Position numbers and translations under genes: made by a program. Shown here piece by piece: positions 1,400-56,707 of a stretch of 64,000 bases of DNA (positions within the stretch are counted from its first letter, which is position 1; the number at the start of each line of letters is the position of its first letter). The notes under the pieces are model-generated. The model was given only the letters and a program-made list of their open reading frames with translations. It was not told where the DNA came from and did no database searches. Source of the DNA: a virus; IMG/VR virus record IMGVR_UViG_3300036939_000034, positions 6,324 to 70,323 of that record. The stretch is one strand, 5' to 3'.

Positions 1400-2401
1400 T
1401 TGGAGAAGTGCGATCGCATTTTATTATTCATCTCAACAGGAAGAATGGTAGCACAAATGAACGGAATTGAAGTTGTTATCAAATTTGAGAGACTAGTTGT
1501 TGATTCGCGACTAATCGCACAAAGGCTTGACATTCAGCATAAAAACTTTTTGGTAAACATAGAGCAGTACGAAGAAGAGGCTGTTGTAGAAGGGTTTTTA
1601 CCACTCGCGTTTGAAACGCGCCTGGTAAAACGCCCACAGGGAGGGAGTTACGAGGAGCGATGGGCTTGGCTGGATGAAGAGTGGGCTAACTATGCGATGA
1701 CCCTTTCTCGCAATACGCCAGAAGTCAGAGCGGCTAAACGAGGATTAATTAAAGCTTTCTCTACTGCAAAGCAAAAACTGGCACAAAAGCAACCGCAGGT
1801 CGAATTATTGGTTCAGCAACCAGAACCGCTCAACGCAGACATCGAACAACTAGCGGACGAGGTGGTCAAGATTATTTTTGAAATGATTTGGAAATCTGCG
1901 GACTGCATAACCAACGTCAAAGTAAAAACCGCCAGAGAACAGAAGAAACTAAAGAAGGAGTTCGAGAAGGGGATCGACCGCAATTTTCTGTTCTCGATAG
2001 CGACGGAAGCTATTGGCGACGTAGGTCACAACGCCGAACACCAGCACAAGGAAGTTATCAAACAGATTCGGTTGAGAGTCGCTCCCTACAAAGAGTACTT
2101 CGTCTCCAAGCTTCTGGAATGGCAGGAATTGCAAGCGCTTTCGCAACCCACACAGCCGCTACTGCCGCCCACCGTCGTCGTCCTTCGACCCAAGGATGTT
2201 CGCAAAAAGATTGAAGAGTTCCTCGATAGGTTGCAGAGCATGACCCCGGAAGAACAACGGGCTTTGTTCCTCACCGTCCCTAATCTTACTCAGAAAGAGA
2301 AAAGCTCAGGTCGCTTCAGTAGCCGGATAATTGCCAGATACCTTGAGCTGGCACCCGGACAAGATCGGCTGGTGGCGGCGATCATGAGCGAAAGGAATTG
2401 A
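1400..2401 (+). CDS. Rha-family phage regulatory protein with an extra C-terminal domain (true start probably downstream, e.g. ATG 1445 or 1457)
   Basis: VVDSRLIAQRLDIQHKN...MTLSRNTPEVRAAK is a Rha-like N-domain; the C-terminus is shared with ORF 18206. Confidence 0.75.
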   Translation: MEKCDRILLFISTGRMVAQMNGIEVVIKFERLVVDSRLIAQRLDIQHKNFLVNIEQYEEEAVVEGFLPLAFETRLVKRPQGGSYEERWAWLDEEWANYAMTLSRNTPEVRAAKRGLIKAFSTAKQKLAQKQPQVELLVQQPEPLNADIEQLADEVVKIIFEMIWKSADCITNVKVKTAREQKKLKKEFEKGIDRNFLFSIATEAIGDVGHNAEHQHKEVIKQIRLRVAPYKEYFVSKLLEWQELQALSQPTQPLLPPTVVVLRPKDVRKKIEEFLDRLQSMTPEEQRALFLTVPNLTQKEKSSGRFSSRIIARYLELAPGQDRLVAAIMSERN

Positions 2402-2618
2402 TAAACAAGGGCTTGAGAGTGCGGAACAAAACACCTGGAAGACCCCGCTTCCAGCCATCCGTATAATCGAGACAACCTTCTGGAGGAATCAATGACAAAC
2501 AAAGAACATCGGTTTTTCCATTACGACCTTGACACAGGCAAATCAACCCCTGTTGAGCCTGTAAGGGTGGGCAACGTCGAATTTCTAGTACCTGTTCAAA
2601 TTAAAGAGGATTCAGACG

Positions 2619-2966
2619 ATGAAAACGACACAGATCGAAACGACTCAGGTGAAGCTGACCAACAACGGCGAGACTCCTGACTTTACCGTTGTAGCCGTAG
2701 AGCTTTTGGTTGACTCCGTTACTCCCGACTGCCTCAAGGAACTCAAGAACACCGACTTATTGAGCCTTGTTGATACAACAAAAGGGGTAGTTATCGACAA
2801 CGCTAGACCAACCTGGCTTGCGGGCTTCCTAGCCCACGAATTCCATGCAACAGCCTGGGTTGCCGTTAATGACCCTCGACTAGGCGCAGTTGTAATCGAG
2901 TCTCATTCCCCATCACGTCAGGTTTCTCAGGTTCTCGACTGGAAATCTGAACTATACATCTGTTAG
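2619..2966 (+). CDS. csx3: Csx3/Crn3-family cyclic oligoadenylate ring nuclease
   Basis: GVVI..xPxWL..FLAHEFHATAWVAVNDPRLGAVVIESH matches the Csx3 signature (H..H, DPR, SH). Confidence 0.85.
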   Translation: MKTTQIETTQVKLTNNGETPDFTVVAVELLVDSVTPDCLKELKNTDLLSLVDTTKGVVIDNARPTWLAGFLAHEFHATAWVAVNDPRLGAVVIESHSPSRQVSQVLDWKSELYIC

Positions 2967-2984
2967 GTTAATTCCCAAGTATTC

Positions 2985-3302
2985 ATGTCAACCCCCCCAG
3001 CCGCAAAGCTGGGGGTTTATTACGTCAACTTTCTTGAGATCCAAAAGCATCGCTCAATGACCTGCACCCACAACTGGCAACCCCTCTACACCAAACCAAC
3101 TGCGCGAAGTTTTCTGGAAATCTGGGATTCCCTCAACTTGAGCAGTTGGCAGCAGTGCGATGCCTGCCAGCAACTTGGACGCATCCAAGCGAGCGGTAAG
3201 GTGAGGCTTGAGCCAGCGAAGTCGCGAGATCGACGGCTGGCTGATGTCCAAAAATGGAATGACACCATTCGGGTGTACCGCCAAAACCTAGAACGCCTGT
3301 GA
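2985..3302 (+). CDS. Hypothetical protein, possibly Zn-binding (probable start ATG 3057)
   Basis: CTH...CDAC motif. Confidence 0.45.
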   Translation: MSTPPAAKLGVYYVNFLEIQKHRSMTCTHNWQPLYTKPTARSFLEIWDSLNLSSWQQCDACQQLGRIQASGKVRLEPAKSRDRRLADVQKWNDTIRVYRQNLERL

Positions 3303-3902
3303 ATGACTGGCATTGCCTCCCCCCAGCACTACTGCTCGACACTGCCCGTCTGGGTCTAGCGGAGCGTCTACGGCATATTTACCACCTAACACAGCACTGC
3401 CTGGTTCGGGTGATGCGCCTGGGTACAGAAAGCGAAGTTCATCCTTAGCAAACTGGCAGTGTTTTATGAGGTATCGGCAATGTCGCTTGACGTAACTTTC
3501 CTTGCCTACAGTTTCGGCTTTTAGCGCTGGAAATGTCCCTGCTTCAAACACAGCACAAATATCTTCTATATCCCATATTATTTCCTTTAAATAACCAAGA
3601 AAGTCTTCCTCAGAAAGCCTCCTTTTCCTCTCCAACTCAGCCTGTTCTTTCTGTTGACGCCGACGCTCTAGATAAGCTTTCTGCTTCTGTGTTAGCGGGC
3701 GCTTATCTGGGCAGACAGAAGGGTCATATAAGTAGCAATCATAGTCCGGTGTCCGAATCACACCGACAGGCTCCCCCGGTCTTTTGCCTAACTGGGAGAG
3801 CTGCTTTCTGGTTTTGAGGTGTTCGGGAGGTTCGTTTTCACCGAACCCCCACCAGCTGTACTCCTGCATAAAAGCTTGGCTAAGAGCGATCGCAAAAACC
3901 AC
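3288..3902 (-). CDS. Hypothetical phage protein
   Basis: Long ORF in a minus-strand operon with 3938 and 4288. Confidence 0.55.
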   Translation of the reverse strand: MVFAIALSQAFMQEYSWWGFGENEPPEHLKTRKQLSQLGKRPGEPVGVIRTPDYDCYLYDPSVCPDKRPLTQKQKAYLERRRQQKEQAELERKRRLSEEDFLGYLKEIIWDIEDICAVFEAGTFPALKAETVGKESYVKRHCRYLIKHCQFAKDELRFLYPGASPEPGSAVLGGKYAVDAPLDPDGQCRAVVLGGGNASHSQAF

Positions 3903-4572: not shown

Positions 4573-4765
4573 ATTGTCTCTCCAATTCCTGACACATCAG
4601 CATATTGATAGTCAAAATACTAACACTTGACAGTTGAAAGTCAACTTGCAATGATAGAGAAGTTAGCCCACGCAACGGGCAAACACTAGGGAACTAGAGC
4701 TGCAAACTCCTTACCCAGGTAACACAGCTCTAGCCCTTCCCCTATACACAAGAGGTAATTCAATC

Positions 4766-10814: not shown

Positions 10815-11120
10815 ATGGGAGAAATAACACTCACTGAAGCACTGCAAGCGGTAAATAGCTCCCTTCAAGCCCTAACCCTAGTGTTGCAGCGTCTTGAAGA
10901 GGATCGCGCTTGGCTGCCCATCAAGGAAGCAGCTCCCCGACTGAACGTAAGCGATCGCTGGATTCTGGAGCGCATTCGTAAACGGGCGTACAAGCACGGC
11001 GTTCATTTCGTGAATACGTCGGACGGCGATCGCCCCAACTACCTCGTGTCAGTGGCAGCCATCCGCAAGGAACTAGCCAAGTCACCAGAGAAGCGAAGGT
11101 CAGGGATTGTCCCGAAATAG
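10815..11120 (+). CDS. xis: Excisionase-like HTH protein
   Basis: WLPIKEAAPRLNVSDRWI...GVHF; converges on the integrase. Confidence 0.65.
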   Translation: MGEITLTEALQAVNSSLQALTLVLQRLEEDRAWLPIKEAAPRLNVSDRWILERIRKRAYKHGVHFVNTSDGDRPNYLVSVAAIRKELAKSPEKRRSGIVPK

Positions 11121-12182
11121 CCGCTCAAACGCCTCCTCGTGAATCTTCTCAGAAATCCATCGGTGATAAATCTGAGTGTGAATTCCAACGGAATGACCCA
11201 TCTGCTGAGAAGCTAGGGTCAAATCAAGCCCTAAATTAAGGGTTCTTACTGCCCAAGCATGGCGCAGGTCATAGGGACGAAACGGGCAACCCGATCGCTT
11301 GAAGTACTGCTGAACACGGTTCCCGAACTCACTATTACTTCCCGCTGTCACGGCGGGAAGTTCCACCTCCCACAACTCCCACTCTTTCCACCAATCCAAC
11401 GGAAACGGAAAAACCAATCGCGCCCCCGTCTTTCCATCTAATACCCTCAATCCCTTCTCCCCCTGCCTCAACCGCTCCAAATCCAGGTGAAAGACCTCGT
11501 GAGGACGTAAGCCATAAACCGCCAACATCCCGTACACCCACTGCCAAGCAGGGTTAACAAGGTGCGATCGCCACTCCTCAATCACCGAATCCTCTGGCAA
11601 TTCACGCGCTTGAGCCTTAGCGGCTGAATAGCTGCCCCGAAAAGCCTTTAGGTCTACGTCTATCCCCGCAAACTTCGCCAAGGCTCCAAGTGCCATACAG
11701 TAGCGCACTCGTGTGCGGGTGTCGGGAGAAGTGAGTGCGATCGCTTCCAGCACCAGCTCCTTGGTCAGCGCAGCATCCGGGTCAAGGTGGCTAAAAGTCA
11801 GTCGATAGTCCTTCTCGTAAGTCGTCTCAGACTTTGGATTACGTTGCCGCCGGTTGAAGTAATCCGCCTCAAACTCCCTGACCCAATCCGCCACGAGCTT
11901 AGGCTTAACCACCTCAACCTTGAGGTACGGTTCCCAGGAAAACTGCTTCATTGCCAGGGCAGCCCCTAGTGCGATCGCCTCTGCCTTCGCTCGTTTAAAC
12001 CCGGATGGATTGGCATAAATCCCTAGGGCTATTTCCTGCTGGTGCGATCGCTCTACCTTACTCCCTGGCTTCGGTGGGAGAGTCGCCCGTAGGTACAACC
12101 TATTCCCTTTTTGTCGTACTTGGACGCCGATGTTAGCGCTTTTTAGCTGAGTATTAACTTCCCCTAAATAATCCTTTCCCAA
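11100..12182 (-). CDS. int: Tyrosine recombinase/integrase
   Basis: YGLRPHE, KTG, YDLRHAWA, MGHS...Y catalytic residues; cyanobacterial-type N-terminus. Confidence 0.95.
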   Translation of the reverse strand: MGKDYLGEVNTQLKSANIGVQVRQKGNRLYLRATLPPKPGSKVERSHQQEIALGIYANPSGFKRAKAEAIALGAALAMKQFSWEPYLKVEVVKPKLVADWVREFEADYFNRRQRNPKSETTYEKDYRLTFSHLDPDAALTKELVLEAIALTSPDTRTRVRYCMALGALAKFAGIDVDLKAFRGSYSAAKAQARELPEDSVIEEWRSHLVNPAWQWVYGMLAVYGLRPHEVFHLDLERLRQGEKGLRVLDGKTGARLVFPFPLDWWKEWELWEVELPAVTAGSNSEFGNRVQQYFKRSGCPFRPYDLRHAWAVRTLNLGLDLTLASQQMGHSVGIHTQIYHRWISEKIHEEAFERLFRDNP

Positions 12183-15087: not shown

Positions 15088-16284
15088 ATGGAAACCCAAA
15101 ACCATGCTGATTTCGGTGCAATCATTCCAGCCTTTCTCGACGAGTATCCTCTAGACCCTTTTGAATTCAGACTTTTTGCAAGAATTCAACGCCGATCTGG
15201 AAGACGGGAGTGCTTTGAATCACTCCCCAACATGGCTAAAGGTTGTCACATGAGCTTAGGCAAAGCTCGACTAGCTTTTCGAGTTTTAGCTGAGTGCAAA
15301 ATCATCTCAGTACAAAATAGAGCAACAGAGGGAAAGACATACCTCTGCACTATCAATCCGATTGAGTACTGGGTTCCTCAAGAGCAGGTAGAAGCCATCC
15401 GGAAAAGGTTAGCCCCTACCAAATCTGACAAGGGTACTGAATCCGATACCCCTATCAAATCTGATACCCCTACCCCTATCAAATCTGATACCCCTACCCC
15501 TATCAAATCTGATACCACCCCCCTATCAGATTTAGTACCACCCCCCCTATCGGATCTGATACCCGAAGGAATACCTCTTAATGAATCAATCAATGAATCC
15601 CAAGTAATCTTAATCCCCCCTACCCCCCGAGGGGGAAACGAGAGCGAATCAACTTCGGTTGTTGAGATTCCTGGAGAAGAGGTGAACTTACCTCCCTCGA
15701 CTGACTCATACCTTTACTCAGAAGACAGAGAAGAGGGTGGGCAGCAATCAAAAATTGAAGATCAAGAAATTACGGTTCAATCTTCTACTTCGCTGTCAGA
15801 ACAGCCAACTTTGTCAGAAACGATTAAGCCTGATCGTGAGGGCGAATATTCCGCCTCGCCGCTGCGTGATAACAGTGTTTTTGTAGGCAGCGGCAACTTA
15901 GCTCCAGATAGCAAACAAAGACCTTTTGACCAACGTAAGGGGACATGGAAAAGCATTGGGTCTGACCCCTGGATGCAGAGCGGCTCAAATGTTTTGCCTG
16001 AATTCAAGCAGTGGTTATATCAGCGACATCAACGCAAAAACAAAGGTTTGACGTTATCCGATGCCGCGTCAGAGATTCGCAACGATTACGCTAGGGCGTC
16101 CGATCTCTGGTCGGAATACCAAGACGATTTAGCCCGACACCAGCAAGCACATCTGAGGTTGGTTCAGCCAATAGAACACAAAGCACTAGTTAGCAACGAA
16201 TTACCAGTCTCCGCAGAAGTCAGAGAGCAGTTCAGGCAGAAATTACTTAACAAGAAGGTGAATTCATGTATGCCAAAAATTTAG
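15088..16284 (+). CDS. Replication initiator (lambda O-like organisation)
   Basis: N-terminal wHTH-like region, internal iterons, directly upstream of the helicase. Confidence 0.75.
   Translation: METQNHADFGAIIPAFLDEYPLDPFEFRLFARIQRRSGRRECFESLPNMAKGCHMSLGKARLAFRVLAECKIISVQNRATEGKTYLCTINPIEYWVPQEQVEAIRKRLAPTKSDKGTESDTPIKSDTPTPIKSDTPTPIKSDTTPLSDLVPPPLSDLIPEGIPLNESINESQVILIPPTPRGGNESESTSVVEIPGEEVNLPPSTDSYLYSEDREEGGQQSKIEDQEITVQSSTSLSEQPTLSETIKPDREGEYSASPLRDNSVFVGSGNLAPDSKQRPFDQRKGTWKSIGSDPWMQSGSNVLPEFKQWLYQRHQRKNKGLTLSDAASEIRNDYARASDLWSEYQDDLARHQQAHLRLVQPIEHKALVSNELPVSAEVREQFRQKLLNKKVNSCMPKI
15413..15563 (+). repeat. Iterons / probable replication origin
   Basis: About six copies of CCCTATCAAATCTGATACC-like units at about 24-bp spacing inside the initiator gene. 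Confidence 0.75.
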
Positions 16285-17627: not shown

Positions 17628-18209
17628 ATGACACAGCACTCTGTAAACAAGTTCAAACTTCTCGAAGAAATTCGTCACTTGAACCAAAAAGAACAACAAC
17701 TAGCAGGACAAAAAGCGGCAATTCACCACGATCAAATATGCTTCCTATTCAGTCTGGGGCAGCGCATTCAGCAGCTCTATGAGGCTTGTGAGTATGGCGA
17801 GTACAAGGCGATGCTCACTCGAATTTCATTTAGCTGGGCAGACGCCGATCGCAAGCGCAAGGTTTGGTTGACGTTTGGTAAATACCGTAACGAGCCGTGG
17901 ATTTCCAATTTTGGGAAATCAGCGCTTCAGGAAATGGCTTACGGCAAAAAACCCGATTTAGAGATTATTGAACAGGCGATCGCCTTAGCAAAAAGCGGCG
18001 TAAAAGTTGGCGTTTCCTGGGTCTGGGCTGTGCGGGATAAAAAGCGTTCCTGTGTGCCGTTGGACGCCAATGCGGTCAGGAATTCAGCCATCAGGAAAAC
18101 TCGCTTGTCCGCGAAAGTGCGTCAGCTGGTTCATGCCGTTGTTGATGAAATTGGCGAGGAGGAGTTGTTAAAGGTGCTCCAGAGCGTTCGAGAGGCACGG
18201 AGGGCATGA
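17628..18209 (+). CDS. Hypothetical protein
   Basis: Coupled ORF. Confidence 0.55.
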   Translation: MTQHSVNKFKLLEEIRHLNQKEQQLAGQKAAIHHDQICFLFSLGQRIQQLYEACEYGEYKAMLTRISFSWADADRKRKVWLTFGKYRNEPWISNFGKSALQEMAYGKKPDLEIIEQAIALAKSGVKVGVSWVWAVRDKKRSCVPLDANAVRNSAIRKTRLSAKVRQLVHAVVDEIGEEELLKVLQSVREARRA

Positions 18210-21200
18210 GCAGTCTACTCACTTTGTCCAATCCTCCTGAGGCAACAGACTCCCCCAAGTCCGGCTTATTCGTCAGCTTCGGCTACACCTACAACGAGCT
18301 AGAGAACTGTGGAAAGTGTGTGACTCGTCGCGACTGGAAAGACTCACACGCCCAGAAATTTATCAAAGCCTATCAAAAGGGCTTGCTGATTCGAGCGTTT
18401 GACAAAGACCCCCGCTATAGAGGCGTCCAAACCGGGTGGTTGAAGCTAACAGTTGCACCTTACCAAGAAGCACTTGCAGATATGCCAGAGGGCGATGTTG
18501 CTCTTGAAGGTTTTCCGGAATTGAGCAAGGAAAAATTCCTCTCTCAATTCTTCAAAAAAACTGACTTGCTAAAACCCGTTTGGGTTGTGCGGTTCAACTA
18601 TTCCCCTTTTCCCCTTAAAGACCAATGCCAACAAGTGGACATCTCTTCGCCGGTGGTGGCGGCGACACCGAAGGAGCAGGCAACGCTGGATACGACTCCT
18701 TGTGGGCTATCCAGTACGAGCCAGGAGAAAAGCAGCAATGGGCTGCCGCCATCTACCGCAAGCGATTCCCTAACACACGACTCATTGAGCGGGACATCAC
18801 CCAGCTCACGGACGAGTTTATTCAGTCTCTCCCCGTACCAGACATTCTCATCTGGGGAAGTCCTTGCCCGGATTTCTCCCAGGCTGGAAAACGTGCCGGT
18901 ATTGAAGGCGATCGCGGACGCCTGTTTTTTGAAGGAATCCGATTTCTGCAACTTCTCCAGCCTAAATTTTTCCTATTTGAAAACGTCCAAGGACTGTTCA
19001 GCTCAGGGGAAGGAGAAGACTTCAAGCAAGTCATCCAAGCGTTTGCAGAAGTGGGGTATATGGGGACTTGGCAGCTCAGAAACGGGAGTCGCCATGTCCC
19101 ACAAAACAGACCCAGAGTCTTCTGTCTGGGCGTTCACCGGCGATGTGCGAATTACGTCCCCGAAGCCTTACAAAAAGACGCTGGCTGAATGCTTGGGAGG
19201 TAGTGCACCAATAAACTCAGTTAGCGGTGACCCTGTAGATCAGGCTTACACCCTGCGCCAGTCTTCTTTTAAGCAGGGTACTGGAAACGCCAAGCACCCA
19301 AACACTTTTGTTCGGCTGCCTGCTGCTATTAAGGCTTGCGCCAATGAAGTTGAGTTTACGGATGAAGCCCCTAGCTTGATAGCGGGCAGGTGGCTTGATT
19401 CAACCAATAGCAACCACGCTAGAGGCGGGAAGGGCTTTGCCATCCTTGACACACTACAGTCAGCAAGAGAGGGCAAGCCTCGCATCTATGAATCAGATGC
19501 GTGCTCGCTACTTTCCCCCTCTACGGGTGGCTCAAAGCTAAAGGTTGTCCATCGGGCACCAGGCGGCGATCGCCTTTACACGGAGAACGCACCCACACTA
19601 CGTTCTCTCGCCAACACCAACGGTCACCAAGCTGGCAGCGGCGCAATGAAGGTGCGAGAAATCGACGGGGGAGCTTACATTGAACGCCCCATGACAGCCC
19701 GTGAGTATGAGAACGTGATGGGCTGGGAACCCAATTCCACAGCTATTGGACTAACGGCTGACGGCAGGGAAATCCAGATTAGCGAGACACAGAGAAAGCG
19801 CGTATTGGGAAACGGGATTGTTCCCCAAGAAATCACAGAGATATTGCTCGCCCTTAAGCCATTTATTGAAGATTCCGTATTGAGCGGGCATCAAGAGCAA
19901 ATAGATGAAATTGCCCAGATGGTTCGAGATATCGATCCGGACTGCCCCAACGCTCTGCCAACGATTGAAGCTTCGACCCTTCGACAGGCTCAGGGCAACG
20001 CCCCGCTCAGCTTTAAAAGCGACTTTGGGCAAGTCAAAGAAAAAGCGACTGTTGACGCAGTCGCCGTAAGCATAAACACATCAGGAGAATACACGATGGT
20101 TGCTACAGTTTCGGAGCAATTTGATTTAGAACAAACAATTCAGTCTTACAAGGACAAGCTCAAGCAACTTGACGCTCAAGCTACTACGTTTCCCGCGAAG
20201 TGCGATCGCTCTACCGCTCAAGAGAAGCGGGCCAACACATCTGAACGGAATCGCATTTCTCGCCTTTTGGAAGGTCTGGCTGTTTGTCGCAAATTTCCTC
20301 ACAACACAAAAGTGGTTCACGACTTCAACGGTGAGGGTCTAGTTAAAGCCGTGTTCATCGACCATCGTCAAGTGCCTATGCTTTCGGTTGTATTTGATGG
20401 TTCAGGGTTGGAGGATGTCTCCCCCTATGACGTAAAGGTGGTGAATGGTGTTGAGCAGGGTTCAGACGCCGAAGTTCGACAGACTGAACAGGCAATCTCG
20501 ATTGAGGCAGCTATCGAACGGATAGCAGGAGCAGAGCAACAGACTGCCACCAACGACCAATTAGTTGCCGATGGTCAGGAGTCGGTAAAACGCGATCGCC
20601 CATCACCACCAGTTACGGCTTACCTAAACCCCGATGACATCATCATCGACTGTGGAACACAATCGCGAATGTTTGAGGATGCCCTCAAGATTGAGGACTA
20701 TAAGCGAGATATGGACAACGGCGAGTGGGATCTAAACCGCCTACCCCTACCTGTTGTTTTCCATAACCCAGATGACGGACTTCACTACGCTGGCGACTGC
20801 CACCAACGAGTAATAGCCGCACGAAGGTCGCCCGCTATCGACAAGCTACTTTTCGAGGTTCGCATCGGCTCATTGGCAGAGGCAAGGCTTTTCTCTGCAA
20901 AAGCCAACACTCAGCACGGACTAGGGGCAGACAACTCACCTGCTGGGGTGCGTAAGCGGATTGAAATGTTTCTTGACTCGATCGGGCAGCTGTCACCCGA
21001 ACGCTACCTTGAAGAATTTCTATCAGTCCCAGATCTGACTCGAAAGGAGCGAGGAACAGGGAGATTCAGCTCCCGCACCATTGCTCGTTACCTCCGTCTT
21101 CGCCCTGGTCAGGATCGGCTGGTATCAGCCATCATGCACGAGCGGGAATTATCTGCGCGTTTTGCGCAGATGAATCTAAAGGAAGGCGATCGCGTTGAAG

Positions 21201-22297
21201 TAATTACTGGCGCTCCCGACTGGATCAATGTGGGAGAGTTGGGAACCATCATGCAACTGGATAAAAAGTCAGGAGTTTGGGTGAAGTGGGATGAACGTGA
21301 AGGTGCTCCCGTGCCGATTCTTCCCCAATTCGTCCAGCTAACAGATAAACCTAAGCCTGCGCCTGCGCCAAAACCACCAGCTTCTCAAGGAGTAACAGGG
21401 AGTACGCACGTCGCCAAAACCTTCTCACCACCAACGCCAGAAGACGAGGGGGTTCTGCCGAACGAGGAGGAGCGATCGCCTGATCACGGCTCCCCTGCAA
21501 CACAGCCCGAACACCAGTTCACAACTACTACCCCCCAAGAGTACGCATCGGCGGCAGCCACGATAGAGCGAGAGCAGTTGCCTGCTGTGGTGGAAATTTT
21601 GGTGCGCAATATGCCCAAGCAGAGTGTTGAAGTGGTGGAAGCGATCGCCACTTCGTTCAGCGAAGAGCAAAGGCGGCGTGTCGGCGAGATCTTAGGTTAT
21701 GAAGCCAGGATTCAAGAGCTAGAAGGTCGAATAATGGAGCTAATGGAGCTAGAAACGAAGCTACAGAAGCCTGCTACTCGCACCGACGAATGGTACACAC
21801 CCCCTGAGTACGTCGAGATGGCACGGGAGGTGCTGGGTGGTATCGACCTCGATCCGGCTAGTAATGAGCTGGCACAGTCCTGGATTCAAGCTAAGAAATA
21901 TTTCACAAAGGATGACGAGGGACTGGTTGCCAGCGACTGGTATGCGTGGAATGAAGGCCCCATTACTGTCTGGTGTAATCCTCCCTATGGTCGCGATGTT
22001 TTTGAGTGGCTTACTACTGCGATTCGAGGATATCAGGACGGCGATATCAAGTCTGCAATGCTCTTGCTCAATCGCACGGGTGCCACTTGGTACAAGTCAT
22101 GCATTAAAGAGGTGACCGCTATCTGCGAAGTACACAAACGCATCGCTTTTCTTGATGAGAATGGCGATCGCCAATCATCACCTCGCTACTACAACGACTT
22201 CCTCTATCTGGGCGAAGATGTTGAGAAATTCATTGAGGTGTTTTCAGCAATTGGTGATGTTCGAGTGTTGCAGTCTGAGCAGCGTCGTGCTTCTTAG
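18206..22297 (+). CDS. Polyvalent protein: ASCH-like + C5-MTase C-terminal half (TRD, motifs IX-X) + ParB-like + SH3/KOW-like + Dam-type N6-adenine MTase
   Basis: KCVTRRDW/EGF..WVVRF (ASCH); RPMTAREYENVMGW and RVLGNGIVP (IX, X); GDCHQRVIAA (ParB-like); DEWYTP, IDLDPAS, WCNPPYG (N6 MTase). Confidence 0.85.
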   Translation: MSSLLTLSNPPEATDSPKSGLFVSFGYTYNELENCGKCVTRRDWKDSHAQKFIKAYQKGLLIRAFDKDPRYRGVQTGWLKLTVAPYQEALADMPEGDVALEGFPELSKEKFLSQFFKKTDLLKPVWVVRFNYSPFPLKDQCQQVDISSPVVAATPKEQATLDTTPCGLSSTSQEKSSNGLPPSTASDSLTHDSLSGTSPSSRTSLFSLSPYQTFSSGEVLARISPRLENVPVLKAIADACFLKESDFCNFSSLNFSYLKTSKDCSAQGKEKTSSKSSKRLQKWGIWGLGSSETGVAMSHKTDPESSVWAFTGDVRITSPKPYKKTLAECLGGSAPINSVSGDPVDQAYTLRQSSFKQGTGNAKHPNTFVRLPAAIKACANEVEFTDEAPSLIAGRWLDSTNSNHARGGKGFAILDTLQSAREGKPRIYESDACSLLSPSTGGSKLKVVHRAPGGDRLYTENAPTLRSLANTNGHQAGSGAMKVREIDGGAYIERPMTAREYENVMGWEPNSTAIGLTADGREIQISETQRKRVLGNGIVPQEITEILLALKPFIEDSVLSGHQEQIDEIAQMVRDIDPDCPNALPTIEASTLRQAQGNAPLSFKSDFGQVKEKATVDAVAVSINTSGEYTMVATVSEQFDLEQTIQSYKDKLKQLDAQATTFPAKCDRSTAQEKRANTSERNRISRLLEGLAVCRKFPHNTKVVHDFNGEGLVKAVFIDHRQVPMLSVVFDGSGLEDVSPYDVKVVNGVEQGSDAEVRQTEQAISIEAAIERIAGAEQQTATNDQLVADGQESVKRDRPSPPVTAYLNPDDIIIDCGTQSRMFEDALKIEDYKRDMDNGEWDLNRLPLPVVFHNPDDGLHYAGDCHQRVIAARRSPAIDKLLFEVRIGSLAEARLFSAKANTQHGLGADNSPAGVRKRIEMFLDSIGQLSPERYLEEFLSVPDLTRKERGTGRFSSRTIARYLRLRPGQDRLVSAIMHERELSARFAQMNLKEGDRVEVITGAPDWINVGELGTIMQLDKKSGVWVKWDEREGAPVPILPQFVQLTDKPKPAPAPKPPASQGVTGSTHVAKTFSPPTPEDEGVLPNEEERSPDHGSPATQPEHQFTTTTPQEYASAAATIEREQLPAVVEILVRNMPKQSVEVVEAIATSFSEEQRRRVGEILGYEARIQELEGRIMELMELETKLQKPATRTDEWYTPPEYVEMAREVLGGIDLDPASNELAQSWIQAKKYFTKDDEGLVASDWYAWNEGPITVWCNPPYGRDVFEWLTTAIRGYQDGDIKSAMLLLNRTGATWYKSCIKEVTAICEVHKRIAFLDENGDRQSSPRYYNDFLYLGEDVEKFIEVFSAIGDVRVLQSEQRRAS
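18625..19188 (+). CDS. C5-cytosine methyltransferase N-terminal half (motifs I-VIII), nested out of frame in the 18206 ORF
   Basis: HLFAGGGG (I), GSPCPDFSQAG (IV), FENV (VI), PQNRPRVF (VIII). Confidence 0.9.
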   Translation: MPTSGHLFAGGGGDTEGAGNAGYDSLWAIQYEPGEKQQWAAAIYRKRFPNTRLIERDITQLTDEFIQSLPVPDILIWGSPCPDFSQAGKRAGIEGDRGRLFFEGIRFLQLLQPKFFLFENVQGLFSSGEGEDFKQVIQAFAEVGYMGTWQLRNGSRHVPQNRPRVFCLGVHRRCANYVPEALQKDAG

Positions 22298-49598: not shown

Positions 49599-52496
49599 AT
49601 GCAGTTAACCGCAAAACTCGCCCGTGTCCGCATCGCTGATGATGTGTTTGTCAGTGGTGACGGGATACTCCTCCCGAACATCACCGTTTCCCTAGGGGAA
49701 GATCTGCGCTCTTCGACCTGTAGCTTTAGCCTCAATGACCCAGGCTTACTGATTGGGGCAAAGTACCGGGAAATCAGTGTGAAGGAAGGGGGAATTCAAG
49801 TCCCTTCAGAACTGTTAGACGCCCCAAAGCAAGTAGCGGCGACCACTGGGACGGCGACAACGGGCGCAATTCCTTCCGCTCCACCTCCAGGCGGACTAAC
49901 GAACTACGCGGCCGGCTCTCAAGGGGAAATCGTACTGGGAATAGTCAAAGAATGCTTAAAAAACGGCATCAATGACCCCACCAAAATTGCTTTCATGATT
50001 GCCGTAGCCGAGGGGGAAAGTTCGCTCAACCATAACGCCAAGGGAGCGAGGAACGAAGGGGCGGGTAACTACTACGGTCGCTCCCTCGTGCAAATCACCT
50101 TCGACTACAACTACAAAGAAGCTAGTAAGGTTGTTGGCGTAGATTTGATAGCTAACCCGGACAGGGTCCATGAGCCTGCCATCTCTACAGCCCTCTTAAT
50201 CTGGGGTGTGAAGCGTGGGTGGTGTAGTCGTGGTGGGATCGATAAGTATGTGACCGGTCCTAACTCTGACCTCGCCACTGCCTACCGTGCAATTCAAGGG
50301 GGCGTGTGGGGCGAACGATACCAAACCTTTTTTAACAAGTGGTTCAAGCAAGTTCCGGCACTTATCCAGCAAGCAGGGGGGGCTGCTACCCCACCACCAC
50401 CTCCCCCTCCACCGCCAGCCGATCCAATGAGTACTGCAACACCTGCTGCTGCTACCCCACCAACTACCGAAACTCCTCCCCCTGTTGAGGCTTCCAAAAA
50501 AGGCACTGAAATCATCATTGAGATAGCCGTGGGGTATAGTGCGACGTGGAAAGAAGCGATCGCTTTCCATTTCATCCACACCGAAACCAAGACGAGCTGG
50601 GATGCTGACGGTAAACAGACCACAACGTTCGGGGGGAAATCTATTCGCTGGTTGCTTACGAGGGTGCCAGTAACCCAAAGCTTTGAAAATATCAATTTCA
50701 AGCAGTTTACCGAGATGCAGGTTTCGGGCTTCAATCTGAAACTGGACATGGAGGGTAGCGGTCTTACATTCCAGCACTTAAGTCAGGACGGTCAAACTCC
50801 CTTAGATGTACTCTTCCGAGAATCCAAGCGTCTAGGATTTCGGATAGCAGAAGGGATAGGAAAAAAATCAAACACCTTGATCGTGGAGCCGTTTGCGCGG
50901 CCCAACTTTACCAACCTAATCATTGACGAAGAAATTCTAATTAAGCCCGCAATCTTCACCGACAAAGCAAGAGCCTCGTCATCAAGTGCCCCAGCCGCAA
51001 CCGTCTCCGCTCCCGAAACAGGAACAGGGGAAGCCAAGAGTGCGATCGCTCGTGACACTGGCGATATGTCCTCAACCAAGCCAGAATCCAAAGCAGGAAC
51101 AGGACAAAAGCCCGGTAGTGGTGGAGTAACAGGTGCGACTGCTACCCCTGTCGGAGGGACAGTAAAACCGGACGCGGTGAAGATGGCTGTGCCAACTGCA
51201 ACCACCACAACCACTACTCCACCAACTGCAACCACTGCGATTGCTTCTGGTGCTGCCCCTAGTGCGATCGCAACCACTTCAAAAGCTGGAGCCAGTCAGG
51301 AAAAGAATGCGACAACCAAAGTTGAAGGCCCGGTTAAAATCACCAAGCCGGACGGGACGGTAGTTGAAACCACCATCACAACTGAACAGAAACTTGAACC
51401 CACTCAGGTGACGCGGAAAAAGACCACAAAAACGGATGTAACTAAGACTGAGGCTGCGACTCAAACCACAACCAAGGTGGAAGCAGTAACAATAACAGAG
51501 GGGAAAACCAAGACCGTCACCACCATCACAGAACCCGGCAAACAGCCCGCCACCACTACCAAGGAAGAGAAGAAGGTCAGCGCCCAAGACCAGAAACTTT
51601 TAGAGCAAGCCAAAGCATCTGTAGGCTCGTCAACCGTTGCAGCGACGGGAGCGGGTGCCCCTGCCAACGCTGACCCTGTAACCGGGCTGCCTAACCAGAA
51701 AGCTGGGTTTATCGATCTTAAAGACGGCAGAGCTGAAGCTGAAGTTATTGCTGACGAAAGCCGAAGGGTGAAGGGATACGAAGACAGCTACACCCTGGTG
51801 ATGAATTCAGACACATTGCAGTTAGTGCCCGGTCAGATTGTGGCACTATCCAAGCGACTGTTTCCCGACCCCTTCGCGACAGAGAAGCGAATCGCGACTG
51901 TTGACCACAATTTTCAGGCAGGGACAACAACGATTAACACCTACACGCCACAAGCGCAGCTACCAGCAGGTAGTACCAATGCCGTGGCTGCCGCCTCCCC
52001 GTCGTCCCCAACCCAGCTAGCAACGCCGACATCTGCCCCAGGGAAATTTATTTTCCCTGTTCCCAAGGGAGCAACAACAATAGGTGACGGCTACGGCACA
52101 AGAGCGAATCGCGAACCGGGATACAGGCACAATATCTTAGATATAACCGCACCAAGATCCACGCCAGCGGTGGCCATGGCTGACGGGATTGTAACTGATA
52201 TCGCCCCGAACGCTGGGGGAGCAGGCAATTTGATGACGATCACCCACGGGGGTGGGTATGTCGCTACTTATATGCATGGAGTATCAGGGAAGTTTGCGCT
52301 CGTTCCTGTTGGTGCTCAGGTCAAGCAAGGTCAAGACGTTTTCTTGATTAACTCCACAGGTGGAAGCACTGGCGACCACCTGCACCTCAAGTTCACCTTG
52401 AACGGGTCATACTGTCTTTTGTCCAGGGTAGGAATAGACGTACTTAAACTTGGCTTACCACTAGAGCAGTACAACAAGACGTGCGATAAATACTAG
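49599..52496 (+). CDS. Baseplate hub protein with GH19-like lysozyme and M23 peptidase domains
   Basis: YYGRSLVQITFDYNY (GH19-like); HNILDI, YMH, STGGSTGDHLH (M23); Thr/Pro-rich linkers. Confidence 0.8.
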   Translation: MQLTAKLARVRIADDVFVSGDGILLPNITVSLGEDLRSSTCSFSLNDPGLLIGAKYREISVKEGGIQVPSELLDAPKQVAATTGTATTGAIPSAPPPGGLTNYAAGSQGEIVLGIVKECLKNGINDPTKIAFMIAVAEGESSLNHNAKGARNEGAGNYYGRSLVQITFDYNYKEASKVVGVDLIANPDRVHEPAISTALLIWGVKRGWCSRGGIDKYVTGPNSDLATAYRAIQGGVWGERYQTFFNKWFKQVPALIQQAGGAATPPPPPPPPPADPMSTATPAAATPPTTETPPPVEASKKGTEIIIEIAVGYSATWKEAIAFHFIHTETKTSWDADGKQTTTFGGKSIRWLLTRVPVTQSFENINFKQFTEMQVSGFNLKLDMEGSGLTFQHLSQDGQTPLDVLFRESKRLGFRIAEGIGKKSNTLIVEPFARPNFTNLIIDEEILIKPAIFTDKARASSSSAPAATVSAPETGTGEAKSAIARDTGDMSSTKPESKAGTGQKPGSGGVTGATATPVGGTVKPDAVKMAVPTATTTTTTPPTATTAIASGAAPSAIATTSKAGASQEKNATTKVEGPVKITKPDGTVVETTITTEQKLEPTQVTRKKTTKTDVTKTEAATQTTTKVEAVTITEGKTKTVTTITEPGKQPATTTKEEKKVSAQDQKLLEQAKASVGSSTVAATGAGAPANADPVTGLPNQKAGFIDLKDGRAEAEVIADESRRVKGYEDSYTLVMNSDTLQLVPGQIVALSKRLFPDPFATEKRIATVDHNFQAGTTTINTYTPQAQLPAGSTNAVAAASPSSPTQLATPTSAPGKFIFPVPKGATTIGDGYGTRANREPGYRHNILDITAPRSTPAVAMADGIVTDIAPNAGGAGNLMTITHGGGYVATYMHGVSGKFALVPVGAQVKQGQDVFLINSTGGSTGDHLHLKFTLNGSYCLLSRVGIDVLKLGLPLEQYNKTCDKY

Positions 52497-52504
52497 AAAG
52501 AGTG

Positions 52505-52602
52505 CAAAATACCCCTCATCCGAAGACAAGGGGTATAGATGCGATGATTTGCGAAAAGATGCGTAGTGACGTGATGAGAAGAACTGAGGAGAGACGAGGT
52601 GC
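52505..52602 (-). ncRNA. Putative small RNA unit 3: degenerate 5-nt repeats + hairpin
   Basis: 13 pentamers at 52536-52600 (plus strand GNG-NN, only 4 perfect GAG); hairpin 52509-52536; TAAGAT-N6-GCACCTC upstream. Confidence 0.6.
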
Positions 52603-52611
52603 TTCTTTATC

Positions 52612-52724
52612 TTAAACAAGCCGCTCTTGCTTTTTCTTCAAGAACGGCTTGTTCGTTGTGTTGAGGGGAGGTGAGTTGAGATGAGAAGAGTTGAGCGGAG
52701 TCGAGTCGAGTAGAGCGGAGGTGT
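52612..52724 (-). ncRNA. Putative small RNA unit 2: (CTC-NN)n + hairpin
   Basis: 12 perfect GAG units plus one GTG at 52656-52722; hairpin 52615-52653; TAGAAT-N6-ACACCTC upstream. Confidence 0.7.
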
Positions 52725-52739
52725 ATTCACATTCTACTC

Positions 52740-52850
52740 AAAAGCGATCGCACCCATTGAAGAACGCGATCGCCCGTTGAGATGAGAAGAGGAGAGTAGA
52801 GCGGAGCTGAGACGAGTTGAGAAGAGCGGAGCTGAGAAGAGCAGAGATGT
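52740..52850 (-). ncRNA. Putative small RNA unit 1: (CTC-NN)n + hairpin
   Basis: 14 perfect GAG units at 52777-52848; hairpin 52744-52773 plus U-tract; TAGGAT-N6-ACATCTC upstream. Confidence 0.7.
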
Positions 52851-52859
52851 ACACCCATC

Positions 52860-53366
52860 CTACCGAAAACTCTTCCAATCCTCCAAAAGCTTCTGCTTAT
52901 CCAGCATCTGTTCAGGCGACTTAATTACTTTTTGCCTCAGCATCAGGCTTGATTCTGGACTGAAAACAGTCTCTCGCAAATCAATGTAAGCCATCGATAA
53001 TCCATACTCTACCCGCTGCGAATGAGTTAACTTCTTTGGATTAACGCACTCTACCTTACGCCTATAACTTGCCGTGTCACTCCTCATTCTTTTGCTGTGT
53101 ATACTGTTTGCGTGTTTACTAATCTCAGCATTCAAAAGCCGTCTATATCCTTTGTTGTGTTCGCATACCAAAGATACAGAGTATTCAGCCTCGGCTATTT
53201 TTATAGCTGCTTCTAGAAAATAGCGCTGACGCCCCCTAATATCACACGCTGCAACCTCTACCAGTTCTTCATAAGTGATAAACTCCCCTTCCTTCAAGTC
53301 TCGTAACCGTTGCACTAACTGCTGTGTGATTGGCGATCGCTTATCAGTTTTCATTCTTCGTTCCAC
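52860..53366 (-). CDS. Partner protein of the Cas7-like gene, possible winged helix (probable start ATG 53354)
   Basis: ATGA overlap with the upstream gene; GEFITYEEL...NKGYRRL. Confidence 0.65.
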   Translation of the reverse strand: MERRMKTDKRSPITQQLVQRLRDLKEGEFITYEELVEVAACDIRGRQRYFLEAAIKIAEAEYSVSLVCEHNKGYRRLLNAEISKHANSIHSKRMRSDTASYRRKVECVNPKKLTHSQRVEYGLSMAYIDLRETVFSPESSLMLRQKVIKSPEQMLDKQKLLEDWKSFR

Positions 53367-53953
53367 TCCATTTTTACTACCTTAAAACGTCCAAAATAAC
53401 CGTTGTTTCGAGGTCTGAAACGCCCAATTCCAATCAATCGCCCTGCCTGCTCTAAATGCCTGTTCAATACCTCTTCAGTAATGGTGTCGTCATAAACAAT
53501 AAACTCTGCTACCCCTTGCCATTTGTACAGCACTGGGTAACACTTCATTACCCGCTTACCACTCCCCCTCACTCCATCAGCCGGATAGAATCCCCATTCG
53601 CCAATCCAATCATCTTTTAAGATTGGTGTCCCCTCCAAGGACTGGAGAGGCATCGGCTCTATGCAGAGGATGCCAGCTTCAAAGTGCTTCGTCCAAGTCG
53701 CTTTACCCTTCCCCGGTATTTGTTCCCCCAGGAATTTAGCCGCTTCAGACAGGGCGTTCTTCAGTGCCATATTCGGCACAAAACTTTTCCCGTCCAAGTC
53801 AACGTGTATCCGTTCTTTCCAGGTTCTCTCCTCGTAGGCGTCCGGGAGTTCCTTATTGAGCTTCGGTGTGTTGTGAAACTTTGATTGAGAATAAGGCGTT
53901 AGCCCCTCAAGATGAGCGATCGCAATCTTGGGCATAAAATCTGAGCTTTTCAA
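53351..53953 (-). CDS. Stand-alone Cas7/RAMP-like protein (probable start ATG 53935)
   Basis: LEGLTP first strand, FVPNMALKNALSEAA (like IPGSSLKGALR), Gly-rich loop GIGRFRPRNNGYFGRF. Confidence 0.75.
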   Translation of the reverse strand: MKSSDFMPKIAIAHLEGLTPYSQSKFHNTPKLNKELPDAYEERTWKERIHVDLDGKSFVPNMALKNALSEAAKFLGEQIPGKGKATWTKHFEAGILCIEPMPLQSLEGTPILKDDWIGEWGFYPADGVRGSGKRVMKCYPVLYKWQGVAEFIVYDDTITEEVLNRHLEQAGRLIGIGRFRPRNNGYFGRFKVVKMEWNEE

Positions 53954-56611: not shown

Positions 56612-56707
56612 TAGGTTGTAGGTTGTAGGGGGTAGGGGGTAGGTTGTAGGTCGTAGGGGAAGATCTCTTCATTAGCTACCACCTATCCCCTACCCCCTAT
56701 CACCTAC
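56612..56707. repeat. Heptamer tandem repeats in inverted arrangement (STRR-like)
   Basis: About six GTAGGKK units followed by about four CCTAYCM units. Confidence 0.65.

Follow-up and report, generated by a model that had tools for sequence, protein, structure and literature searches.

A CUC/NN repeat array of a Mu-like cyanophage is probably a VIPR guide RNA with a gapped address in the integrase gene of another mobile element

What is encoded by the pentanucleotide repeat arrays that lie in the tail-gene cluster of this virus, and do the variable dinucleotides of these arrays address anything? The window (the whole stretch of DNA that was analysed, 64,000 nucleotides) comes from an IMG/VR virus record that is linear, 70.3 kb long and estimated to be 82% complete, and it contains Mu-like head and tail genes, an integrase gene and the cyanobacterial GCGATCGC palindrome. 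On one side of the arrays is a tail gene with GH19 and M23 peptidase domains (49599-52496, + strand), and on the other are two ORFs on the - strand, 168 and 200 aa long, which break up the tail cluster. Taken as one joint explanation, it is very likely that the window is from a temperate, Mu-like cyanophage whose tail-gene cluster contains a VIPR module of five - strand genes (vipr, vap and three for vrRNAs). With the same high confidence, we read array 1 as a VIPR guide RNA that has a perfect gapped address in the integrase gene of a rival element and a partial one in the integrase gene of the phage itself.

VIPR (Viral Interference Programmable Repeat) is known from preprints on the SUSP1 type II system (10.64898/2026.04.26.720920 and 10.64898/2026.04.26.720927). 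In the text of the first of these, a VIPR consists of a minimal RAMP protein (Vipr), an accessory gene (vap) and vrRNAs of ~100 nt, which have 9 to 16 YNNGG repeats and a 3' tail. The NN dinucleotides recognise double-stranded DNA under a "1 nt skip rule," with the skips on wobble positions, and the targets lie in competing phages and satellites (10.64898/2026.04.26.720920). The canonical repeat triplet is GGY, with "a related consensus" allowed, and a target is called at an NN match of at least 80%, a level that no self-target passed (same text). As described in a companion structural preprint, one protomer sits on each repeat, grips the GGY triplet and presents the NN, and a third preprint reports that the SUSP1 VIPR silences a satellite recombinase gene, so that the satellite is immobilised. 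Non-canonical triplets beside Vipr-like folds (GAC, CAC, WGT and TGH) are named in the text of 10.64898/2026.10.21.760802.

The features of the locus are collected in Table 1. All three units have the layout expected of vrRNA genes, namely tandem pentanucleotide repeats in which the triplet is fixed and the NN hypervariable, and then a structured 3' tail that is conserved; the degenerate unit 3 has ~13 repeats. RNA folding of the - strand gives a 3' hairpin of 12 to 15 bp and a U tract in every unit. The repeat tract of each unit ends in a constant 3' handle, CUC-AU-CUC-AAC, that is also present in related loci, and in close relatives the NN strings differ while the handle is kept. Since the 5' flank and the two final NN are part of the handle and not of the guide, the guide of unit 1 is 12 dinucleotides long (the first 12 NN). 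The -10-like hexamers of units 1 and 2 resemble the promoter consensus and are candidate promoters with predicted transcription starts; a promoter scan of the window did not call either TAGGAT or TAGAAT. Among sequencing runs listed as containing this stretch there is no RNA run, and there is one DNA run that may be its source.

Table 1. Positions of the VIPR-like module, the integrase gene and the gapped match within it (window coordinates)
Feature	Position	Strand	Description
vrRNA unit 1	52740..52862	-	-10-like TAGGAT, 14 CUC/NN repeats (52779-52846), handle, 14-bp hairpin, U tract
vrRNA unit 2	52614..52735	-	-10-like TAGAAT, 12 CUC/NN repeats (52663-52720), 15-bp hairpin tail
vrRNA unit 3	52505..52600	-	degenerate repeats (CUC, CAC, CGC, others; 5-nt spacing), 12-bp hairpin, UUUU
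vap	52860..53366	-	168-aa accessory protein, N-terminal winged-helix-like domain
vipr	53351..53953	-	200-aa Cas7-like RAMP protein, predicted RNA-binding filament subunit
tyrosine integrase	11100..12182	-	360 aa; PF00589, phrog_1; homologue of the proposed true target
self-site in own integrase gene	11779..11813	-	20/24 guide bases; 21/30 over 11776-11819 with handle and flank dinucleotides

An earlier sequence-only reading of this DNA had taken the RNA to be the GAG strand. The dinucleotides that it listed for array 1 are indeed those of the + strand, on which 52777-52848 reads as NNGAG x15, but the RNA itself is on the - strand and reads CUC/NN. The evidence for this is the terminator hairpins, the orientation of the genes, and a base pair in the hairpins of the related locus L068, which is a C-A mismatch on the GAG strand and a G-U pair on the CUC strand. 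SUSP1 likewise has its GGT-NN arrays on the vipr strand, as the window has CTC-NN. The fixed triplet on the vipr strand here is thus CUC and departs from the canonical GGY. The CUC strand has no stop codons in any frame; this is a consequence of its composition and gives no evidence for coding.

The AF2 model of the 200-aa protein (pLDDT 91.1) was compared with the PDB by Foldseek, in which the best matches are type VII Cas7 and Csm3 (E = 1e-7) among 146 matches at E ≤ 1e-3. Alignment with SUSP1 Vipr (ALH47069.1) by hhalign has a probability of 97.3% and an E value of 2e-11, with the G-loop inside the alignment. By tblastn, the similarity to SUSP1 is remote (E = 1e-3, 32% identity across 93 residues), and against GenBank phages there was no match at E ≤ 1e-5, only remote ones at E ~1e-3, SUSP1 among them. 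The protein matches phrog_4652 and has more than 3,600 homologues. The vap ORF overlaps the end of vipr, and jackhmmer found vap homologues directly downstream of vipr, 77 ORFs in a set of 83 loci, one of them the SUSP1 neighbour ALH47068.1. The Vap model (pLDDT 90.6) has an N-terminal winged-helix-like domain, and its Foldseek matches, which are to winged-helix DNA-binding domains, are weak (E ≥ 0.046). Neither vipr nor vap has a Pfam family, and PADLOC and NCBIfam gave nothing meaningful for them. Based on these folds and alignments, we conclude that Vipr is a minimal RAMP protein homologous to the described Viprs and that, as in those systems, it forms a two-gene locus with an adjoining vap.

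The protein features that read the triplet were compared as well. In SUSP1 Vipr, D177 and W178 touch the guanines, according to the text of the companion structural preprint. The Vipr clade of the window has R and F at these positions, and this is the case in GGC-type members too. The G-loop, GRFRPR, is common to the GGC and CUC types of this clade, which indicates that the residues that read the triplet are elsewhere.

Arrays of the same kind are present in other viruses. A periodic-motif scan of IMG/VR returned mostly plain microsatellites and few loci with variable NN; in two that came from the pattern scan, L068 and L080, the variable-NN arrays adjoin vipr/vap homologues. L068 has ~12 tandem CUC/NN vrRNA units of 9 to 25 repeats each after vipr-vap (about 1970-3470, + strand of that locus), and a conserved hairpin-containing segment of ~60 nt spaces the units, giving a CRISPR-like layout. 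In 80 viral loci that belong to one Vipr clade (>50% identity; L136 to L215), the fixed triplet varies and its last base is always a pyrimidine. A crude period-5 detector places arrays with a fixed triplet and a variable dinucleotide on the flanks of vipr in 51 of these 80 related loci. The fixed triplets across the related loci are GGC, CGC, GAC, GTC, GTT and CTC, and CTC arrays on the vipr strand are found in 4 of the 80. The closest relative, L136, has a Vipr that is 87% identical to that of the window; its NN strings are wholly unlike those of the window and its handles are conserved. The vipr-vap pair of L136 is inverted relative to the tail gene, with the result that CUC arrays are on both strands around the pair (3284-3410 and 4596-4740).

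Several further features of the window are recorded here in their own right. A 115-aa phage ORF at 2619-2966 (+) has a Cas_csx3 domain (PF09620, E = 7.6e-20), and its product might act in ring-nuclease-type counter-defence against type III CRISPR. A 24-nt tandem repeat, present five times at 15447-15564 within a 398-aa ORF (15088-16284) just upstream of a DnaB-like helicase gene, may be an iteron-type origin. The 1363-aa ORF at 18206-22297 (+) has a Dam-type N6-adenine methyltransferase domain at its C-terminus. Two adjacent and roughly complementary heptamer arrays (56612-56707; TAGGTTG x6.6, then CTACCAC x4.6) are located between two - strand ORFs of the baseplate region. No Rfam family reached its gathering score anywhere in the window.

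The sequence-only reading had further proposed that the dinucleotides of unit 1, when one base is skipped after each, match the integrase gene of the virus itself. This match is present as claimed: 7 dinucleotides in a row match exactly, as does an eighth farther along, and 21 of 30 bases agree. The peptide at the site is YEKDYRLTFSHLDPD, as had been read, and the skips all fall on third codon positions, 11819 being the first base of codon 122 (12182-11819 = 363 = 121x3). The coordinates required only a small correction; the site is 11776-11819 (-), and an end at 11775 was one base too long in that it took in the last wobble base. Scored over the trimmed guide, the self-match is 83%, and over the whole tract it is 70%. 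All four of the mismatches in the trimmed guide are in its 5' third and are non-synonymous (SHLDP vs NRLNQ), and the own integrase keeps the conserved KDYRLTF codons that the guide matches.

A rough estimate of 1e-2 for the probability of this match by chance was about right. When the order of the array 1 dinucleotides was shuffled and the gap kept at 1, a run of at least 7 occurred in 17 of 3000 trials and a total of at least 21 in 104 of 3000. For the trimmed guide of 12 dinucleotides, 4000 shuffles gave a run of at least 7 in 11 cases and a total of at least 20 in 3. With all three arrays and gaps of 0 to 3 combined, 14 of 600 shuffle sets contained a run of at least 7; the unshuffled alternatives, that is, other gaps and other arrays, reach only runs of 4 to 5 in the window. 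The self-match is therefore moderately unlikely by chance. Integrase homologues are widespread in filamentous cyanobacteria, and the likeliest account of the self-match is homology with the true target, the own gene having escaped its guide.

The true target had been placed, from the letters alone, in the homologous integrase of a competing phage, and a better target among the integrase homologues was in fact found. A genome-contig scan with integrase alignment yielded a Coleofasciculaceae MAG contig (L297) that encodes residues 1 to 245 of an integrase 98% identical to the homologue P0127. The DNA of L297 matches the guide of unit 1 at 12 consecutive dinucleotides, numbers 3 to 14, with 24 of 24 bases and in codon frame. 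When handle positions are counted, the match is 24/26 and 25/30 (83%). The runner-up among the 80 genome loci has 19/26, and the best of 81 further loci (80 metagenome loci and L216) has 20/26. One of the three vrRNAs thus has a target of the kind that defines VIPR, with a 1-nt skip, at least 80% of NN matched and wobble phasing. In genome G001, there is exactly one site at 0 mismatches, the control pattern having none, and a perfect unit 1 site is found in 1 of 52 genomes of the G001 family. G001 does not contain this phage; the only match to it is 149 nt long at 68% identity.

The peptide that had been predicted for the target was correct in its central part. Two proteins among the 120 integrase homologues listed, P0127 and P0147 (YDKDYRLTFNRLNQD), which are 66 to 69% identical to the integrase of the window, fit the predicted residue classes at positions 3 to 14. 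That is 12 consecutive positions at the aligned site, compared with 8 for the window's own protein. The first two classes, [FL][IM], which fail, and the last dinucleotide correspond to constant positions of the RNA handle or flank and not to the guide.

That the competitor is a phage is the part of the prediction that needs correction. L297 and the window have the integrase alone in common, and the neighbours of the L297 integrase are actin-like and RHH genes; the carrier is some mobile element, perhaps similar to a plasmid, and not demonstrably a phage. In L297, a Tn3-type transposase fragment truncates the integrase at about residue 259, so that copy may be dead. The proposed search of virus sequences gave no exact match in IMG/VR to the 10-dinucleotide core of unit 1. 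With the integrase as the sole query, one viral locus was retrieved, and the contig of P0127 was not among the results of the metagenome scan. A 3-mismatch match to unit 1 in genome G275 is antisense within an oxidoreductase gene and looks like chance. Unit 2 had no exact match in IMG/VR with either of two pattern versions, was absent from G001 at up to 3 mismatches, and was not found at up to 2 mismatches in 401 genomes of the G001 order, in which a control pattern matched once. Unit 3 had no exact match in IMG/VR and none in G001.

One alternative is that unit 1 acts on the phage itself, by binding the own integrase gene despite the four mismatches and tuning integration or excision. The self-site has 20 of 24 guide bases, a total that only 3 of 4000 shuffles reached, the four mismatches are confined to the 5' third of the guide, and 83% is nominally above the 80% NN criterion of the preprint when guide positions only are scored. 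However, scoring of the whole tract, as is done in the preprint's pipeline, gives 21/30 (70%), which is below the threshold. In the systems covered by the text of 10.64898/2026.04.26.720920, no self-target reaches 80%, and perturbation of NN pairing abolished silencing. In addition, a perfect non-self target exists in L297, and the four differences are all non-synonymous, as expected for escape from the phage's own guide. We regard autoregulation as distinctly unlikely. Somewhat less remote, though still doubtful, is a joint proposition of three parts, that CUC/NN obeys the GGY skip code, that four positions separate the self and rival integrases, and that the 83% self-match is functional.

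It is highly improbable that the gapped integrase match is a chance product of post hoc searching. The family-wise shuffle rate of 14/600 is not tiny, and many decodings could have been tried. Against this, the match grows to 24/24 at the homologous L297 site, just where the prediction placed it. When the 7-dinucleotide anchor is given, a random extension by 5 dinucleotides is identical to one of the observed homologue tails with a probability of ~1e-5. Furthermore, when 20 CUC-type guides with skips of 0 to 3 were compared with 1.35 Mb of loci, the best runs were 5 to 7, with the sole exception of unit 1 at a skip of 1, which gave 12.

The NN pairs could also be mere spacers with no address, either in an RNA that binds protein or acts as a sponge, comparable to the (GAG-NN)11 site of the TRAP ring, or in DNA iterons or microsatellites. 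GAG-NN is the optimal TRAP site. Although the + strand reads GAG-NN and most periodic-pattern matches in IMG/VR are plain microsatellites, this reading is almost certainly wrong, and a TRAP-type (GAG-NN)n site can be rejected, since the hairpins, the L068 G-U pair and the gene orientation identify the CUC strand as the RNA, the protein that accompanies the arrays is a Cas7-like RAMP and not TRAP (no TrpBP domain was present among 59 ORFs scanned), and a perfect 24-base gapped match in coding sequence is not expected of spacers.

The reading that we prefer is therefore that unit 1 is a VIPR guide aimed at a rival integrase, and its action can be proposed by analogy with SUSP1. Each predicted vrRNA has about 12 to 14 pentanucleotide repeats (fixed CUC, variable NN), a constant handle and a 3' hairpin. 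Vipr protomers would coat it, one per repeat, each gripping the fixed triplet, and the exposed NN pairs would base-pair with double-stranded DNA, every third base of the target being skipped. Such a ribonucleoprotein, formed at this locus as in the published systems, would bind codons KDYRLTFNRLNQ of the tyrosine integrase gene of another Coleofasciculaceae mobile element and repress it. Silencing of the integrase may then hinder the integration or excision of the rival. The own integrase, a 66%-identical homologue with four non-synonymous differences, is matched only in part. A guanine-free CUC/NN repeat that works under the same skip code would mean that the code is independent of the triplet held by the protein.

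The VIPR mechanism is already in print (2026 preprints). The sequence-only reading had supposed that the RNA pairs two bases and skips one, which is the published "1-nt skip rule," and that synonymous changes would not allow escape, which agrees with the published placement of the skipped bases on wobble positions (both in the text of 10.64898/2026.04.26.720920). The non-contiguous code was thus reached independently from raw sequence, and its target prediction held, which validates this way of reading. What is new is modest and consists of a predicted non-canonical CUC/NN VIPR in a cyanophage, its apparent natural target with one-base skips, and a self homologue four mismatches away. CUC/NN may itself already appear in data S4 or Fig. 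S17 of 10.64898/2026.04.26.720920 or in Fig. S10 of 10.64898/2026.10.21.760802; it is not among the triplets that the text of the latter names. Within the preprint texts, natural targets that support the 1-nt skip rule have so far been reported only for GGY-type systems, and the text of 10.64898/2026.10.21.760802 gives neither a natural target nor a skip rule for non-canonical arrays.

The tyrosine integrase target parallels the satellite recombinase of SUSP1, which suggests that recombinases are recurrent targets in conflicts between mobile elements. A perfect site in the rival and a four-mismatch site in the phage itself constitute a natural experiment on mismatch tolerance and on self/non-self distinction. 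If the self-match were functional, VIPR would serve not only as a weapon but also to regulate the lysogeny of the phage itself.

Compared with SUSP1, the locus is alike in that a small RAMP protein is followed by a homologous accessory gene, and in that the same strand encodes RNAs of ~100 nt with 9 to 16 pentanucleotide repeats (three fixed bases and two variable) and a structured 3' tail. In both, one base per codon is skipped, the target is in a competing element and a recombinase gene is aimed at. The differences are that the triplet of the window is CUC rather than GGY, that its tails are simple hairpin terminators rather than a pseudoknot, that its host is a filamentous cyanobacterium and the similarity of its Vipr remote, and that the phage itself has a homologue of the target gene. 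The non-canonical VIPR arrays in the text of 10.64898/2026.10.21.760802 are similar to those of the window in their period of 5, their non-GGY triplets and the Vipr-like folds that adjoin them. With the Cas7 backbone of class 1 CRISPR (Csm3, Cmr4 and type VII Cas7), Vipr shares the RRM, the G-loop and the thumb fold, and by analogy its protomers would also polymerise on a guide RNA, with bases flipped out periodically. In contrast to class 1 CRISPR, the window contains neither a CRISPR array nor adaptation genes nor any other cas gene, and whereas Cas7 has a period of 6 nt on free sequence, VIPR has a period of 5 nt, a fixed triplet and a non-contiguous guide.
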